This document shows positions 10,297-61,349 of a stretch of DNA of 64,000 bases, piece by piece. Source of the DNA: Candidatus Burarchaeum australiense (lineage in GTDB: Archaea; Micrarchaeota; Micrarchaeia; Burarchaeales; Burarchaeaceae); NCBI GenBank assembly GCA_902386535.1, contig CABMJK010000039.1, forward strand, positions 678 to 64,677. The letters run 5' to 3'. Position 1 is the stretch's first letter. Every line of letters begins with the position of its first letter. Both the position numbers and the translations under genes were made by a program. The notes beneath the pieces are model-generated. The model was not told where the DNA came from and searched no databases. It saw nothing but the letters and a program-made list of their open reading frames with translations.

Positions 10297-10302
10297 GATC
10301 AG

Positions 10303-10375
10303 TGGGGCCGCTGAGATTTGAACTCAGGTCACCAGGTCCCAAACCTGGTAGCATACCAGACTGGCCCACGGCCCC
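10303..10375 (-). tRNA. tRNA-Pro (anticodon UGG), no intron, no encoded CCA
   Basis: Hand-folded sequence: GGGGCCG TG GGCC.. anticodon stem CCAGG/CCTGG, loop UUUGGGA, T-arm CTGAG-TTCAAAT-CTCAG, acceptor CGGCCCC, discriminator A. Confidence 0.85.
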
Positions 10376-11899: not shown

Positions 11900-12021
11900 A
11901 GCCCCAGACGAGAATTGAACTCGCTACCTACTGCTTTCTCGTTTCTTTTCCGCCGGCGCTTTTCTTTGGGAAAGAAAAGGGCCGCTACAAGGCAGTCGCT
12001 CTACCGATGAGCTACTGGGGC
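11900..12021 (-). tRNA. tRNA-Thr (anticodon UGU) with 50-nt intron at canonical 37/38 (intron 11936-11985)
   Basis: Hand-folded: GCCCCAG TA GCTC ATCGGTA GAGC G ACTGC CUUGUA|intron|A GCAGT AGGTA GCGAG TTCAATT CTCGT CTGGGGC T. The acceptor, anticodon and T stems all pair. Confidence 0.85.
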
Positions 12022-35480: not shown

Positions 35481-36929
35481 ATGCCGCAGGCATTTGCGCC
35501 AAGAGGCGAAACAGCAGCCGCTCATCTTGAGCAGGCCAGGGCCATGTACGACCAGTACATTGGAATGAATCCCACTCTTGCGCGCATAGTAGTCGTGGAT
35601 GTTTTCGAGAACGGACAGCTGCAGGACAGGTTCCTGGGCTTCAAGCTCGGCAACCGGATTTACGATTTCAGGACAGACCAGGCAACGGGCCGCGAGCGCG
35701 GCTGGGTGACCGAGGCAGACCTCAATCCGGCCGGCGGCAGGCAGGTTTACGCGTGGTCGTTCGAGAAGGACCGGCGGCTCGAGGGCCTGGGCAGCGAATT
35801 TCTCAACGCAGACCTCAGGCAGATGGGCGGGCAGACGCTGGTGCAATACGCGATTCATGGAAGGCTCGGGCAGGCAGGCTCGACCAACGCCAACCTTGGA
35901 AGCGTGCCGGTCAGGCAGGAAGGGACCGGAACTGCGGCCAGGCACATGCCAACTTCCGGAGCGCCTAGCAGCGACAGGATGTTTACGCGCATGTCAGACC
36001 ACACGCTCGCCATTGGCGAGGCCTCCCACGCAGTCGTGCGGGGCGAACTGAAAATTCCGGAGTCCACGCTGAGGCTCGGCTCCGCGCAAGTGCAGGACGT
36101 GAAGGATTTACAGACCTTGTTGAACTCGTTGGGGATTAGTGACGCGTCCGGCCACAGGCTCGAGGTCACGGGCGTTTTCGACCAGCAGACGAAGGAGGCC
36201 GTGACTGCCTGGCAAAAATACATCAACGACGCATATCACCGGGAAGGCGAGGGAAAACTGCTTTTGGAGGACGGGGTTTTCGGGCAACACACGAGGCATT
36301 TTACCCGCGTGATAATGGGGCTCGATCGGGAGGAGGGCTATGGCTTCGGGGGCGGCCGCACGATCGCTCCGGAACCACGGGACGTGGAAGGCGTTGGGAG
36401 CAGGGGGCCTGGCGAAGTGGAGAAACTCGAAGAGGCGCCGGGGCAGGCCACGGCAGGCGACGAGCAACCTGCGCCTGAAACTTCCGCGCCCGGTGCGTCG
36501 GCACAGCAACCGGAAGAGCCGGTCCAGCAGCAGGCAAGGAAAGTGAGCTGGCCCATCATGGGCGCGGGCGGGCAACTTCCGATAGAACCGATTGAGAAAT
36601 TCAGGAGTGGACAGCTCCTGAGCCTGCCGGCGGTAGAGGGCACGAGCGTGATCGCGCCGGTTGACGGGACTGTGACCGACATTTCAATAGGCATTTTCAG
36701 CGGCTATGTCAGGATTAGAGGCGATGACTGTCGGGAATATTTCATAGGCCATCTGAGCCCGGTGAGCATAAGGACAGTCTCAGTCAACGGGCATGTTACA
36801 GGAGGCCGCACCGTTCTGGGCCAGGTGGGCGGGCCGGACATAGTGCACGGCTATGCGAGAATAGAATTCAAGATTACCAAAAATGGTGCGGCGCTGGATC
36901 CGAGCAGGGTTGTTGGCAGCGAATACTAG
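35481..36929 (+). CDS. Protein with peptidoglycan-binding (PG_binding_1-like) domain and C-terminal LytM/M23-like domain lacking the catalytic His residues
   Basis: VQDVKDLQTLLNSLGISDASGHRLEVTGVFDQQTKEAVTAWQKYIN matches the PG_binding_1 pattern. EGTSVIAPVDGTVTDI...GYVRIRGDD..YFIGHLS...GHVTGGRTVLGQVGG...YARIEFKITKNGAALDP matches the M23 fold pattern, but HxxxD and HLHFE are replaced. No obvious signal peptide. Confidence 0.65.
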   Translation: MPQAFAPRGETAAAHLEQARAMYDQYIGMNPTLARIVVVDVFENGQLQDRFLGFKLGNRIYDFRTDQATGRERGWVTEADLNPAGGRQVYAWSFEKDRRLEGLGSEFLNADLRQMGGQTLVQYAIHGRLGQAGSTNANLGSVPVRQEGTGTAARHMPTSGAPSSDRMFTRMSDHTLAIGEASHAVVRGELKIPESTLRLGSAQVQDVKDLQTLLNSLGISDASGHRLEVTGVFDQQTKEAVTAWQKYINDAYHREGEGKLLLEDGVFGQHTRHFTRVIMGLDREEGYGFGGGRTIAPEPRDVEGVGSRGPGEVEKLEEAPGQATAGDEQPAPETSAPGASAQQPEEPVQQQARKVSWPIMGAGGQLPIEPIEKFRSGQLLSLPAVEGTSVIAPVDGTVTDISIGIFSGYVRIRGDDCREYFIGHLSPVSIRTVSVNGHVTGGRTVLGQVGGPDIVHGYARIEFKITKNGAALDPSRVVGSEY

Positions 36930-43295: not shown

Positions 43296-43570
43296 AGTGC
43301 AATGGGATTGCCGAGTTCGATGCGTCCTTCCCCGTAAGATTATCCGCGCCTAGGCTCCACCCCGTTACCCCAAAGCATGGACGCAAATATTTAGGGTTGC
43401 TCCTTTCGGCCTGGCCCGGTTCACATAAGAGCCCATCTCTGGAGGCAGGGCTTCGACGCTTCGGCACGGGTCCCGCGGCAAAGGGCGAACCTTGCCCGGC
43501 CATTCGGTCCCGCCTAAGAGGATTTGCGGTGCAAGGTACCCCTAGCTCCCCGACCTATCCCACTGCGAAG
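43296..43570 (-). ncRNA. Signal recognition particle RNA (7S/SRP RNA)
   Basis: The minus strand contains GGGCCAGGCCGAAAGGAGCAACC, which resembles the conserved helix-8 motif (GNAR tetraloop plus AGCA). 5' GCAGTGGGAT pairs with 3' ATCCCATTGC. There is a 5' GGGGAGCTAGGGG Alu-like start and a TATA box about 25 nt upstream. The ends are approximate. Confidence 0.7.
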
Positions 43571-44723: not shown

Positions 44724-46694
44724 GTGTTAAAGCACGCAAAGATAACCCCCATAGGGAACCGGTTCTATCCTTGGCCTAACGGAGCGGTTGCCAGACCTCG
44801 CGACCCGGCAGACTTCGCCAACGCCGAGCCGAAGGCGGAAAAAAGGACAGGATGGTCGGAGGAGGCGTTGAAAAAACACGAGGCACGTGTGGCGCACCTA
44901 AGGGCACTGAGTGAAGACTACTGGGGAAAACAGGCGCACATTGAAGGCAGTGAAGAGTTACTCGGTAAGGAGGCGGCGAAAAAAAATCAAGAATTTCTTT
45001 TGGAGAGGTATTACAGGGTATGTTCAAGAAAGAAAAAAGGATGGCTGGAGGAAAAGGAAGACCTGGAGAAGAAGCTGTTGTGGGCATATGATCATTTACT
45101 ACGTGAAATTGCAAACCAAACTCAAGGTTTGCGACTTGAGAAATTCGGCAGCACCCTGGACGCGGACGATTTCTTTGTGTGGGGCCAACTGGGCGTGTTG
45201 AAGGCAATCGAAAAATATGTGCCTGAAAAAAAAGGGTATTTCGAGTTCTACCTGAGGACATGCATACGTAACGCGATTCGGGACGGAATCAAGGATGAGC
45301 AAGGCACCATACACATAGCAGAAGACACCGTAAGCGAACTGGGGCAACTTAAAAAAGCGATAGAAAAACTTACGCAACAGAATGAAGCGCGGGTGGCGCG
45401 CCTCGTAGAAGAAAGGAGCTTGGGTGAAAGACAGTTAAGTGATGCAGAACTGCGTTTAATCAGAAACTGCGGCAAGCCCACGGAAGCCGAACTTGCCGCT
45501 GAGATGGAAGTAACGGTGGAAACTATCAAACGGCTTTTCGAGATAGACCGCTTATTTTTCAATGCTTCCCTGGACGCGCCTGTGAACCGGCAATCGCAAG
45601 GCGAAGACGATGACGCACGGATGCAGTTCTGCGCCGGACCTGGGCTTAAACCGGATGAATACGCGATAATTAGCGCGGTGCTGGAAATCGTCAGGCAAGT
45701 CGTTGAAAAATACGTTTCGGCGAAAGGGGTCAGCGCGCAAACCAGAGAACTGATGCTTGCTAAAATTGACGGTCTTCTCCCGGATTTCATCTCGCTCGAA
45801 GAGGTTGCGGAAACCTTCGGTATGAATCCGAACTATGTGCGAAACACGTTCAGCCAATACCTGGCAGGACCTTTGGGCGATGCGCTGACTGCGCTCGAAA
45901 TCGACGCCGTGCCGATATTTGAAGTCAATCTCGACGTAGTGGAGCGCATGCGCGAAATCGGGAATTGCGCTGGAAAAGAAGCTACGAGTGAGACGCGGAG
46001 GCCGCCGGACTATTGGAAAGACCTGGAAAACAACCTAAACTATCTGCGAGATAATGCCGATGGCGTCTATGCCCCGGACAGCAGCTCAGTGGCTGCAAGG
46101 CCAGTCAAACATTCATTGGACTCGGGGTATTTTCCGGACCACACGTATTCAAGTCTCGCCGCACTTGCAGGGCTTAGATTGAGGACGGAGGAGCCGACGA
46201 TTCATGATGATTTTGACGTGTTTGCGCGGGCGCTCCTGCCACACGTGAAAGACGGAATTATGCCGCCTACGGCCCATTTCAAAGGAAATGGCCTTGAAGA
46301 CCTATACTATAGCATCTTGAACAACTGGGGCGGGAAGGAAGCGGTTATGCGGAAGTTGGCAGAGCGCGGCTTGATCCCCCATGTCGAAGATTGCATTGCG
46401 CATTTGTCGAACAAAGGCCGGCCGAACATGCGCAATGATTTCGGCCTTTTCACCGAGGCGCTGCTGCCGCACATTACGGAAGACGGACGAATCCCCTCGT
46501 ATACGTATTTCAAAAATAACGGAATCGCCACCATTTACAGGTACATTATGGACGTCTGGGGCGGACCTGAAGCAGTCCTGCAAAGAATGAATGGCCTGGG
46601 TATGCTTGGACCGACTAATGGAGAAACCGTGCAGCCGCCGGCCGCAGAGGAGAAGGAGCCGGAATACGCGCTTGTTGGTGCTGGAACCAGATAA
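44724..46694 (+). CDS. Sigma-70 family-like protein (regions 2, 3 and 4 recognisable) with C-terminal tandem repeats resembling homing-endonuclease-associated repeats
   Basis: [46 protein letters not shown] aligns with E. coli RpoD [69 protein letters not shown]...SLDAPV resembles region 3, and [21 protein letters not shown] resembles region 4.2. GC is visibly lower than in flanking genes. The GTG start is uncertain. Confidence 0.7.
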   Translation: [656 protein letters not shown]

Positions 46695-59487: not shown

Positions 59488-60027
59488 ATGCCGAAGAAGG
59501 AAGCTAAGAAAAAGAATGTTGTATCCAGTTTGCTGACGTTCCCGCTTCTTGCGTGGTTTGCCTGGGTTTTCGCGTATTCTGTGATACGCCTGCTCTACGA
59601 TTTGACTGGACCGGCTCAACATCAACTGAATGAGGCTGTCAATCTCTTTGCATTCACTGAAACGCTGGGGATTTTCACATATATCATGTCCGGAGTCTCG
59701 ATTCTGATCATAGCATACATACTGCTTTCAATCGGCTGGAAAGCAAGGGCAAAGTATGGGCTGAGTTGGCAAAAGAGCGCCATCTACGGTGCAATTGCAG
59801 GCGTGGCTGGCTTTGGAATATGGCTGGCTGTAGCCCTTGTGTTCATGATTGCCGAAGCGTCATTGTATCTGCTGTACGGGGCGCCAGGGCGCATGAGTTA
59901 TGTTATTGCATACCTAGGCGCATCAATCCTGCCGGCTGCAATAGGTCTTATTTTCTGGGCACTTACGGGCGCAGCCGGATCTGTCTTGGGCAATGTTCTG
60001 TCTGAGAAGAAAAATGAATGGGCCTGA
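59488..60027 (+). CDS. Hypothetical membrane protein (179 aa, 4-5 TM), lower GC
   Basis: Hydrophobic segments throughout and no motif recognised. Confidence 0.5.
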   Translation: MPKKEAKKKNVVSSLLTFPLLAWFAWVFAYSVIRLLYDLTGPAQHQLNEAVNLFAFTETLGIFTYIMSGVSILIIAYILLSIGWKARAKYGLSWQKSAIYGAIAGVAGFGIWLAVALVFMIAEASLYLLYGAPGRMSYVIAYLGASILPAAIGLIFWALTGAAGSVLGNVLSEKKNEWA

Positions 60028-60088
60028 GTGATTTGTTAAGCAGAGGCGATGAGTAAACTATTTAAACAGTTGAGTATATTATTTACTC

Positions 60089-60667
60089 ATGCTCGAAGAA
60101 CTCGTCACGTCAAAGGTCAAGAGAAAGCTGCTGGTCCTCTTTCTCACCAATCCGGACAGGAAGTTCTACGTGCGGGAGATGGCGCGGAAGACGGGCGAGC
60201 AGACGAACGCAGTAAGGCGCGAGCTGGACAAGCTGGAGCGGCTCGGCCTGGTTGCGAAGGAGAGGACTGCGAACCTACTTTACTACCGCACGGACAGGCG
60301 CTGTCCCATCTACGAGGAGCTCAAGCACATAATAATGAAAACCGAGGGGATCGGAACTGTGCTGAAGCAAGGGCTGGAAGGCGCGGAAAAGGTGCGATTT
60401 GCATTCATCTACGGTTCGTTCGCGAGCGGTGAGGAGCGGGCCGGCAGCGACATTGACGTGATGGTTGTGGGAGGCATCTCGCCGGAGGAGCTGGGGCCGA
60501 AAATAAGGACCGTGGAGAGGCAAATAGGCCGGGAGATAAACCAGGTTGTATTTCCTGAAACCGAGTTCTTAAAAAGGAGGCGTGAGGGGTTTATAGCGAA
60601 TGTAATGAAAGGGAAGAAAATAATGCTGGTGGGCGACGAGGATGAACTTAAGCGATTTACTGGCTGA
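60089..60667 (+). CDS. wHTH plus minimal nucleotidyltransferase (MNT-type antitoxin-like) protein
   Basis: An N-terminal ArsR-like wHTH (FYVREMARKTGEQTNAVRRELDKLERLGLV) followed by the NTase motif YGSFASGEERAGSDIDVMVV. Confidence 0.75.
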   Translation: MLEELVTSKVKRKLLVLFLTNPDRKFYVREMARKTGEQTNAVRRELDKLERLGLVAKERTANLLYYRTDRRCPIYEELKHIIMKTEGIGTVLKQGLEGAEKVRFAFIYGSFASGEERAGSDIDVMVVGGISPEELGPKIRTVERQIGREINQVVFPETEFLKRRREGFIANVMKGKKIMLVGDEDELKRFTG

Positions 60668-61073
60668 GGACCGCGTGAAAAAAGTGCAGCCGGACAGGCT
60701 GCAGGCGCAGGAATGCCTGAAGGCCGCCGGGCGCGACGTGAGGGTCGCAAAGAAGATGCTGGCTGAAGATTTTGACTGGGCGTTTTCCGTTGCGTACAAT
60801 GCCATGCTGCAGTCCGCCAGGGCGCTGATGTTTGCGGACGGTTACGCGCCGGTTGGGGAAAACCACCACAAGATAGCAGTAGACTATGCAGACGTGAAGC
60901 TCGGCACAAAGTTCAAGGAAAAAGTCGAACTGTTTGATGATATGCGGAAAAAGCGCCACAAGGCAGTTTACGAGAAGGTCGGCGCCATCTCGGAATACGA
61001 GGCCAGGCACGCGATAGAAACTGCCGATGATTTCCTGCGGAAAGTAAGGGAGAAGCTAGGGGCTGAAAAATAA
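60642..61073 (+). CDS. HEPN domain protein (toxin-like partner of MNT)
   Basis: A helical protein with AFSVAYNAMLQSARALM and RKKRHKAVYE (an Rx4-6H-like motif). It overlaps the upstream NTase gene by 26 nt. Confidence 0.7.
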   Translation: MNLSDLLAEDRVKKVQPDRLQAQECLKAAGRDVRVAKKMLAEDFDWAFSVAYNAMLQSARALMFADGYAPVGENHHKIAVDYADVKLGTKFKEKVELFDDMRKKRHKAVYEKVGAISEYEARHAIETADDFLRKVREKLGAEK

Positions 61074-61075
61074 GA

Positions 61076-61265
61076 TGGGCCTGAGGAGATTTGTTCGGCC
61101 CCGTTTGCATCGGGGTTTAGAAAGGGGGCGCGGAGCGTGCCCCCTTCTTTGAACTCCTGACCTACGGCTCTCCCAGACGGGAACCGGGTGCTCACAGCCG
61201 CTTTGAGATTATATCAAAGCGCGTCATATAAGACCGCCGCTCTGACCGGACTGAGCTACAGGCCC
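61076..61265 (-). tRNA. tRNA-Ile-like with anticodon UAU and two introns (57 nt at 37/38, 61170-61226; about 58 nt in T-loop, about 61090-61147)
   Basis: Hand-folded: GGGCCTG TA GCTC AGTCCGGTCA GAGC G GCGGT CUUAUA|intron1|A GCCGT AGGTC AGGAG TTCAAA|intron2|T CTCCT CAGGCCC A. The anticodon stem has two G-U pairs. Identity is inferred from the anticodon, the 5-nt variable loop and the GGGCC.. acceptor. Confidence 0.65.
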
Positions 61266-61285: not shown

Positions 61286-61349
61286 CGATACCTTCCTCCC
61301 TTTAGGCGTGCAAATTTAAATTAACTTAACCCGTGCCTGGCGCCCAGAA

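Follow-up and report, generated by a model that had tools for sequence, protein, structure and literature searches.

A two-intron tRNA-Ile(UAU) gene as the very probable AUA decoder of Candidatus Burarchaeum australiense

Which tRNA reads the isoleucine codon AUA in Candidatus Burarchaeum australiense? This DPANN archaeon (Burarchaeales, Micrarchaeia) is represented by a metagenome-assembled genome (MAG) of 1.2 Mb and 57.6% GC from Australian groundwater (PMC8561730, where the contig number appears as 68 and as 76). Most archaea read AUA by a tRNA-Ile2(CAU) carrying agmatidine made by TiaS, whereas Nanoarchaeum equitans and K. cryptofilum have a tRNA-Ile(UAU) instead (PMC8450103, PMC6000648). 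The question is raised by a 190-nt gene near one end of a 64,000-nt stretch of contig CABMJK010000039.1, the whole of which is called the window below. Three proteins encoded in the window match VVC03929, VVC03945 and VVC03953 of this organism exactly, which belong to a contig of 64,824 bp. A preliminary description of this stretch had suggested a two-intron tRNA with the anticodon UAU and, with it, possible use of the UAU strategy by the organism. We confirm that the locus is a real tRNA-Ile gene with two introns and a UAU anticodon. With high probability it is also a functional AUA-reading gene that acts in place of the tRNA-Ile2(CAU)/TiaS route; gene structure, family membership and AUA use all support the suggestion.

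The gene is located on the minus strand and runs from 61265 to 61076, with its 5′ end at 61265. The coordinates and the length of 190 nt given earlier proved to be exact; the strand had not been stated there. The gene is built from three exons and two introns:

61076..61265, minus strand: whole tRNA-Ile(UAU) gene, a 190-nt precursor body with the discriminator A73 at 61076; the orthologue in the related contig L121 is at L121:1754-1935
61227..61265, minus strand: exon 1, 39 nt, with the acceptor 5′ strand, the D-arm, the anticodon stem 5′ strand and C32 U33 U34 A35 U36 A37
61228..61230, minus strand: anticodon UAU (positions 34-36), from ARAGORN on the spliced sequence and from the splice register
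61170..61226, minus strand: intron 1, 57 nt after position 37, at the canonical site 37/38 with a strict hBHBh′ motif
61149..61169, minus strand: exon 2, 21 nt, with A38, the anticodon stem 3′ strand, the variable loop AGGUC, the T-stem 5′ strand and U54-A58
61091..61148, minus strand: intron 2, 58 nt, in the T-loop at 58/59 with a relaxed hBH motif, its interior consisting of two hairpins
61076..61090, minus strand: exon 3, 15 nt, with A59 U60, the T-stem 3′ strand, the acceptor 3′ strand and A73

Read 5′ to 3′ from 61265, exon 1 consists of GGGCCUG, UA, GCUC, AGUCCGGUCA, GAGC and G, followed by the anticodon stem strand GCGGU and the loop nucleotides CUUAUA. Exon 2 opens with A-GCCGU, which supplies position 38 and completes the anticodon stem, and goes on with AGGUC as the variable loop and with AGGAG-UUCAA; exon 3, after intron 2, is AU-CUCCU-CAGGCCC-A. 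Exon 3 stops at A73, and the CCA end is not encoded. Splicing gives the 75-mer GGGCCUGUAGCUCAGUCCGGUCAGAGCGGCGGUCUUAUAAGCCGUAGGUCAGGAGUUCAAAUCUCCUCAGGCCCA, which ARAGORN calls as tRNA-Ile(tat), an isotype name derived from the anticodon only, and whose minimum-free-energy (MFE) fold is a cloverleaf. Both results bear out the earlier proposal that a 75-nt tRNA remains once 57 nt after position 37 and about 58 nt within the T-loop are removed. Likewise, the anticodon loop CUUAUAA (with U33 and A37), the acceptor GGGCCUG (paired with CAGGCCC), A73 and the 5-nt variable loop were all found as described. The spliced product has the 7-bp acceptor, 4-bp D, 5-bp anticodon and 5-bp T stems and the 7-nt anticodon and T loops of a class I tRNA, together with the conserved nucleotides U8, A14, G18G19, U33 and U54U55C56. 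It also carries the features of Ile acceptors of this lineage, namely A73, G1-C72, the wobble pair U31.G39 and the variable loop AGGUC. The unspliced gene escapes the standard tools: ARAGORN makes no call, the score with the Rfam tRNA model is 15.3 bits (threshold 29; E-value 3.9 when 701 bases were searched), and scans of the whole window do not report the locus.

Archaeal introns are defined by a bulge-helix-bulge (BHB) motif, in which two 3-nt bulges surround a 4-bp helix and each bulge is cut after its second nucleotide. We enumerated every BHB arrangement in the precursor and estimated significance from shuffled introns. Two strict candidates were found. One is located inside a G/C-run hairpin of intron 2 and has flanks of 2 bp; the only strong one is 39|97, corresponding to tRNA positions 37/38. 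In this motif (BHB-1), the central helix CUUA/UGGG is bordered by the bulges UA|U and AG|A, by a 5-bp outer helix identical with the anticodon stem and by a 4-bp inner helix GACG/CGUC. Intron 1 is thus flanked by a strict hBHBh′ motif, and a strict BHB at exactly 37/38 arises in 0.3% of the intron shuffles. This motif fixes the cut at 37/38 and thereby the anticodon as UAU. Intron 2 is at a non-canonical position and has a relaxed hBH motif (BHB-2) with the helix GUUC/GAAC, the bulges AA|A and AA|A, a 3-bp outer helix and a 1-bp inner helix; such a T-loop motif occurs in 3.7% of the shuffles. Cutting here restores the T-loop UUCAAAU, the commonest T-loop in the family alignment described below. 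The strands of the two central helices are placed as follows:

61229..61232, minus strand: 5′ strand of the BHB-1 central helix (C32 U33 U34 A35), from BHB enumeration and comparison within DPANN
61172..61175, minus strand: 3′ strand of the BHB-1 central helix (UGGG, near the 3′ end of intron 1), UAGG in L121
61151..61154, minus strand: 5′ strand of the BHB-2 central helix (G53 U54 U55 C56), from BHB enumeration
61093..61096, minus strand: 3′ strand of the BHB-2 central helix (GAAC), followed by the AA|A bulge, from BHB enumeration and the relatives

Both introns are found at the same sites in L121, a related contig with a MetK protein 81% identical and a syntenic ribosomal-protein cluster, which was also recovered as L128 on a contig of 742,788 bp (Ga0315282_10000005). 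The exons of the two genes agree at 37/39, 21/21 and 15/15 positions (73/75 in total), the only differences being in the D-loop. The introns differ more: identity is 81% for intron 1 and about 50% for intron 2, where conservation is confined to the splice-site ends. In L121, the central helix of BHB-1 has UAGG for UGGG, a change from a U.G to a U-A pair that keeps the pairing. The base following UUCAA is a G in this orthologue, which rules out a cut at 59/60 and is consistent with 58/59. The contig L123 (MetK 88% identical) starts within intron 2 and reads ...GCGAACAA|AUCCCCUCAGGCCCA. A pattern scan of metagenomes returned five loci, including two further two-intron UAU genes, one from a close relative (L127) and one more distant (L129), and a tRNA-Ile(GAU) gene (L126, described further below); another match, L125, was rejected as the terminator hairpin after a bacterial tRNA. 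The T-loop intron is thus also seen in the L123, L127 and L129 contigs, and its ends GUUCAA| and GAACAA| are invariant in five genes. L129 shows a compensatory U49-A65 pair in the T-stem. Exon identity, retained splice motifs and the T-runs found after all orthologues point to purifying selection on exons and splice motifs, and intact exons combined with drifting intron interiors and invariant intron ends argue for selection for splicing rather than a pseudogene. The spliced product is 97% identical to that of L121, 88% to that of L129 and 85% to an intron-less tRNA-Ile(UAU) of Micrarchaeota (L095). As a separate observation, L127 (55-142, minus strand of the locus) and L123 (1-29) carry C62 for U62, which creates an A52.C62 mismatch in the mature T-stem and converts the G50.U62 wobble of the BHB outer helix to G50-C62; the 5′ strand of L123 is lost at the contig end.

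To place the gene within a wider family, we scanned one genome per species for Ile-like tRNAs with CUUAUA or UUUAUA loops. At least 120 loci were found; they are a sample and not a census, and the source genome is not among the matches listed. By their record labels, the 120 matches listed comprise 29 archaea, 52 candidate phyla radiation (CPR)/Patescibacteria and 39 other bacteria. All archaea with a lineage label in this list belong to DPANN (Woese-, Pace-, Nano-, Micr-, Aenigmat-, Iain- and Nanohalo-archaea), and for six others the label is simply “archaeon”. Among the bacteria listed, many CPR loci are from Saccharibacteria and Paceibacteria, nine are of the Planctomycetes type and three are from Streptomyces (one on a plasmid). 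Direct UAU decoding may, judging from this sample, be common in DPANN archaea and CPR bacteria. The preliminary view that a UAU tRNA-Ile occurs only in a few lineages such as Nanoarchaeum is out of date, given the publication on ARMAN archaea in 2011 and at least 29 archaeal genomes in our scan.

Of the 29 archaeal genes listed, 26 were cleanly parsed, 22 with an intron of 26-117 nt at 37/38 and four without intron; the parse of L090 is doubtful and two genes were unparsable. No convincing T-loop intron was found in the other archaeal genes among the matches listed. Together with the genes of the window, L121 and L129, the 22 introns form a set of 25. In 23 of these, the 3′ bulge is preceded by UAAG, UGAG, UAGG or UGGG, that is, every purine combination able to pair with C32-A35; after the resulting C32-A35:URRG helix, the bulge consists of two nucleotides of the intron and position 38 (A in 22/25). 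The spliced sequence from the window and 25 other DPANN tRNA-Ile(UAU) sequences align without gaps outside the D-loop. In the consensus cloverleaf of these 26, compensatory changes support 15 of the 21 pairs, and no pair is disrupted. The window tRNA has an unusual U31.G39 wobble, which occurs in 20 of the 26.

The preliminary description had proposed a measurement of AUA frequency in the genome as a check. We counted Ile codons in 11 window genes confirmed by Pfam, and 95 of the 260 are AUA (36.5%; 19.4 per 1000 codons). This share exceeds that of AUU (22%) and is high for a sequence with 59% GC; AdoHcyase uses AUA for 11 of its 14 Ile codons. To assign a meaning to the codon, we compared the 11 AUA sites of MetK with 119 homologues, which have I in 67%, V in 20%, L in 7% and M in 3%. 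The profile of AUC sites is the same, while AUG sites have M in 43%. These sequence comparisons indicate that AUA is a frequent sense codon meaning isoleucine, which calls for a dedicated decoder. The organism very probably decodes AUA with its UAU tRNA-Ile.

We propose the following route from gene to decoding. Transcription of the minus strand would give a precursor of at least 190 nt, in which the archaeal tRNA splicing endonuclease would cut the two BHBs, the strict one at 37/38 (57 nt out) and the relaxed one in the T-loop at 58/59 (58 nt out). The three exons would be ligated, the leader trimmed by RNase P and CCA added. The mature tRNA would then be charged by isoleucyl-tRNA synthetase, and U34, probably modified, would pair with the A of AUA. 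As to the fidelity of decoding, haloarchaeal Ile tRNAs mutated to U34 acquire 5-cyanomethyluridine (cnm5U) and bind AUA > AUG > AUU (PMC3895270). The UAU tRNA would in this way stand in for the usual archaeal tRNA-Ile2(CAU) with its TiaS-made agmatidine.

We also searched for components of the alternative route and for the splicing enzyme. A tblastn search with TiaS of A. fulgidus (validated against PDB 4rvz) gave no match in the window or in 129 loci of other genomes (1.0 Mb). The window has 60 open reading frames (ORFs) with 100 or more amino acids, and in the 50 compared with Pfam no TiaS, EndA or RtcB domain was found; a heuristic scan for further tRNAs, including intron-split ones, revealed none in the window beyond three known genes. 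A literature search for DPANN archaea with TiaS or agmatidine found nothing relevant. By analogy with the phylum-level report discussed below (PMC3239211), both tiaS and tRNA-Ile2(CAU) are probably missing from this genome. Searching a protein collection with fragments of the three-unit epsilon2 endonuclease of ARMAN-2 (PDB 4fz2) gave 1416 homologues. The best 120 of these are 368-406 amino acids long (mostly 383-391) and are close relatives of the ARMAN-2 enzyme; their source names are mostly Micrarchaeota/Micrarchaeia, with a few Marsarchaeota or Nitrososphaerota. An enzyme of this kind may splice the Burarchaeum precursor.

Several observations weigh against a functional, stand-alone UAU decoder. 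The absence of tiaS and tRNA-Ile2(CAU) refers to the 64-kb window (∼5% of the MAG) and the 129 loci from other genomes. An endonuclease from Burarchaeum is absent from the window ORFs scanned and from the best 120 of the 1416 homologues. The T-loop motif is relaxed, its inner helix is a single pair, and its outer helix requires a shift of the T-stem by one register. Folded without constraints, the precursor has an MFE structure (–83.0 kcal/mol) in which intron 1 is paired with the D-arm, and the fold with the cloverleaf and both BHBs (–69.2 kcal/mol) is less stable by 13.8 kcal/mol; MFE folding of the whole precursor recovers neither BHB. We treat this failure as a limit of such folding on a 190-nt precursor and not as evidence against splicing, but it is a weak counter-indication all the same. 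Finally, the MetK homologues are mostly from the same phylum and are standard-code translations, which somewhat weakens the test of AUA meaning.

How much room do these points leave for other explanations? The most serious competitor is a functional but redundant gene: the genome would keep tRNA-Ile2(CAU) and TiaS, and the UAU tRNA would be an extra AUA decoder. This option draws on the small part of the MAG that was inspected and on the MAG paper, which reports only 18 tRNA types at 96.8% completeness (PMC8561730), so that the tRNA inventory of the MAG is incomplete. We nevertheless consider it unlikely, as the CAU/TiaS pair is missing in N. equitans and K. cryptofilum (PMC8450103) and in ARMAN-2, -4 and -5 (PMC3239211), all of which have a UAU tRNA-Ile, and the AUA share of 36% fits a dedicated, efficient decoder. 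Very unlikely is a decaying pseudogene, in which the T-loop insertion, or both insertions, would disrupt a former tRNA gene, with AUA being read otherwise. The rejection of the locus by standard tRNA finders, the relaxed T-loop BHB and the MFE fold of the precursor, which is not tRNA-like, would be expected under such decay. A decaying gene, however, should not keep its exons intact, and 73 of 75 positions are identical to L121, in which the interior of intron 2 has drifted to about 50% identity. Moreover, the T-loop insertion is present at the same site in at least five contigs with the invariant ends GUUCAA|...GAACAA| and a compensatory T-stem change, and a T-run follows the gene in all orthologues.

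A UAU decoder is challenged even less by the two explanations that concern the identity of the codon and anticodon. The preliminary description had raised the alternative that a shifted splice site gives a mature anticodon other than UAU. There is indeed a weaker hBH candidate one nucleotide away on each side (38|98, UCUU/GGGA, with a 4-bp outer and no inner helix), but this register takes out 59 nt and leaves an anticodon loop of only 5 nt. The strict 39|97, with its flanking helices of 5 bp and 4 bp, is the only strong BHB in the precursor and is kept in L121, and 23 of the 25 DPANN genes share the same 37/38 design, with A at position 38 in 22. We therefore reject the alternative register, which has become highly improbable. 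A reassignment of AUA, for example to Met, with a tRNA that is not an Ile acceptor, has nothing specific in its favour, and we regard it as the least credible explanation of all: the MetK AUA sites (I 67%, V 20%, M 3%) are indistinguishable from AUC sites and AUG sites have M in 43%, identity to the intron-less Micrarchaeota tRNA-Ile(UAU) L095 reaches 85% for acceptor, A73 and body, and the relative L129 has almost the same acceptor stem and T-arm as the tRNA-Ile(GAU) gene L126.

The closest published counterpart of the gene comes from the same phylum. Fujishima et al. (2011) reported that ARMAN-2, -4 and -5 have tRNA-Ile(UAU) and are without tRNA-Ile(CAU) and TiaS (PMC3239211). ARMAN-2, Candidatus Micrarchaeum acidiphilum, is the Micrarchaeota representative among them; its pre-tRNA-Ile(UAU) contains a 25-nt strict-BHB intron at 37/38. 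In vitro, the three-unit epsilon2 endonuclease cleaves this intron as well as one in tRNA-Cys, which is at 59/60 and has a relaxed hBH motif (PMC3239211). The Burarchaeum gene shares with that of ARMAN-2 the phylum, the anticodon UAU and the strict BHB intron at 37/38, and differs in that ARMAN-2 has a single intron of 25 nt whereas the sequence studied here has 57 nt at 37/38 plus 58 nt at 58/59. As the ARMAN tRNA-Ile(UAU) was reported in 2011, the Burarchaeum gene represents a known type in a further order of the phylum; here a single tRNA carries the two kinds of intron together.

More distant systems show part of the same picture. In N. equitans and K. cryptofilum, an encoded UAU tRNA (“tRNA-Ile3”) likewise replaces the missing tRNA-Ile2(CAU)/TiaS pair (PMC8450103, PMC6000648). 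The K. cryptofilum gene resembles ours further in having an intron and in having the GAU isoacceptor as its nearest relative, comparable to L129, which shares its acceptor stem and T-loop intron with the GAU gene L126. These two archaea belong to different lineages, however, and no T-loop intron is described for them in PMC8450103 and PMC6000648. The multi-intron tRNAs of Thermoproteales and Thaumarchaeota are similar in having more than one BHB intron per gene, T-loop positions and relaxed motifs and in being missed by standard finders (PMC8450103); they are processed by an (alpha-beta)2 endonuclease, in contrast to the epsilon2 type of Micrarchaeota (known from the literature and not from this MAG), and the lineage considered here is DPANN. 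Among bacteria without tilS, Mycoplasma mobile also uses tRNA-Ile(UAU) in place of a modified CAU (PMC3575796), but without BHB introns.

With this gene, what was seen in ARMAN in 2011 now also holds for a further order of Micrarchaeota, and current understanding is left unchanged. It also fills an annotation gap, since it was missed by ARAGORN and Rfam and the published genome lists 18 tRNA types; without it, the genome would seem unable to read the codon behind one third of its isoleucines. The only new element is the second intron at 58/59 in the T-loop, which is conserved and shared with the GAU isoacceptor of a related lineage. This isoacceptor, L126:1456-1654 (plus strand; Ga0315280_10066517), is a tRNA-Ile(GAU) gene that has no 37/38 intron and is interrupted in the T-loop, likewise at 58/59, by an intron whose homology to that of the L129 UAU gene can be recognised; the two genes have the same acceptor stem. 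This likeness suggests that the T-loop intron is common to the Ile isoacceptors by duplication or copying. Some DPANN tRNAs have conserved T-loop introns that need a splicing enzyme of broad specificity.

More tentatively, and with the odds rather against it, the 58/59 intron could be old, heritable and common to both Ile isoacceptors in a Burarchaeales-like clade and, more broadly, UAU decoding of AUA could be the rule across DPANN and CPR. If this were true, the UAU decoder would have arisen by duplication of an intron-bearing GAU gene, or the intron would have been copied between the two, and TiaS and TilS would have been lost convergently in the two ultra-small radiations. Wide UAU decoding in DPANN and CPR would matter for completeness estimates and for the maintenance of the genetic code in reduced genomes.

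The gene is flanked by a DUF373 membrane-protein gene and a convergent MNT/HEPN pair and adjoins a conserved cluster of genes for Rpr2, S19e, L39e, L31e, eIF6, LX, prefoldin and FtsY. Inspection of the flanks by eye gave two candidate transcription signals:

61312..61320, minus strand: TATA-like box UUUAAAUUU, a candidate archaeal promoter located 47-55 nt upstream of the 5′ end of the mature tRNA
61066..61070, minus strand: T5 run, 6 nt past the 3′ end, a candidate archaeal terminator

The T5 run overlaps, in antisense, the final codons of the convergent HEPN gene, whose stop codon is 2 nt from the 3′ end of the tRNA. T-runs also follow the orthologues in L121, L123, L127 and L129. The stretch 59488-61073 (plus strand), with the MNT (nucleotidyltransferase)/HEPN pair and an ORF for a membrane protein of 179 amino acids, is located between the tRNA and the Rpr2 gene. 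In L127, the tRNA directly abuts Rpr2, and in L121 the tRNA and DUF373 are separated by other genes. The region beside the tRNA resembles a hot spot for insertions.

Intron 1 contains a segment, UCAAAGCGGC (61197-61206, minus strand), that is identical at 9/10 positions to the D-arm segment UCAGAGCGGC of exon 1 (61236-61245, minus strand). Another segment of intron 1, CGCUUUGA, is able to pair with either copy, UCAAAGCGGC or the D-arm UCAGAGCGGC, and the MFE fold takes the D-arm. The CGCUUUGA arm is kept in L121, where the copy of the D-arm is 8/10 identical. This copy could be a folding switch, a trace of intron origin or the product of chance (roughly 0.04 expected).

The window contains three tRNA genes, two of them with introns. 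In addition to the gene described above, these are tRNA-Thr(UGU) at 11900-12021 (minus strand), which has a 52-nt intron in the anticodon loop and was detected by Rfam (54.8 bits) and missed by ARAGORN, and tRNA-Pro(UGG) at 10302-10375 (minus strand). The archaeal signal recognition particle RNA is encoded at 43300-43565 (minus strand; Rfam RF01857, 100.6 bits against a threshold of 96.5); compared with the model it is shortened, its central region being reduced. An ORF of 482 amino acids at 35481-36929 (plus strand) has a PG_binding_1 domain and a Peptidase_M23 match just below the Pfam cut-off, the architecture of a bacterial-type cell-wall hydrolase in a DPANN archaeon. A second ORF, of 656 amino acids at 44724-46694 (plus strand), matches Pfam Sigma70_r2 above the cut-off (E-value 2.9e-7) and Sigma70_r3 just below it, which is unexpected in an archaeon; at the corresponding position, L123 has an ORF of 649 amino acids with no Pfam match on record.

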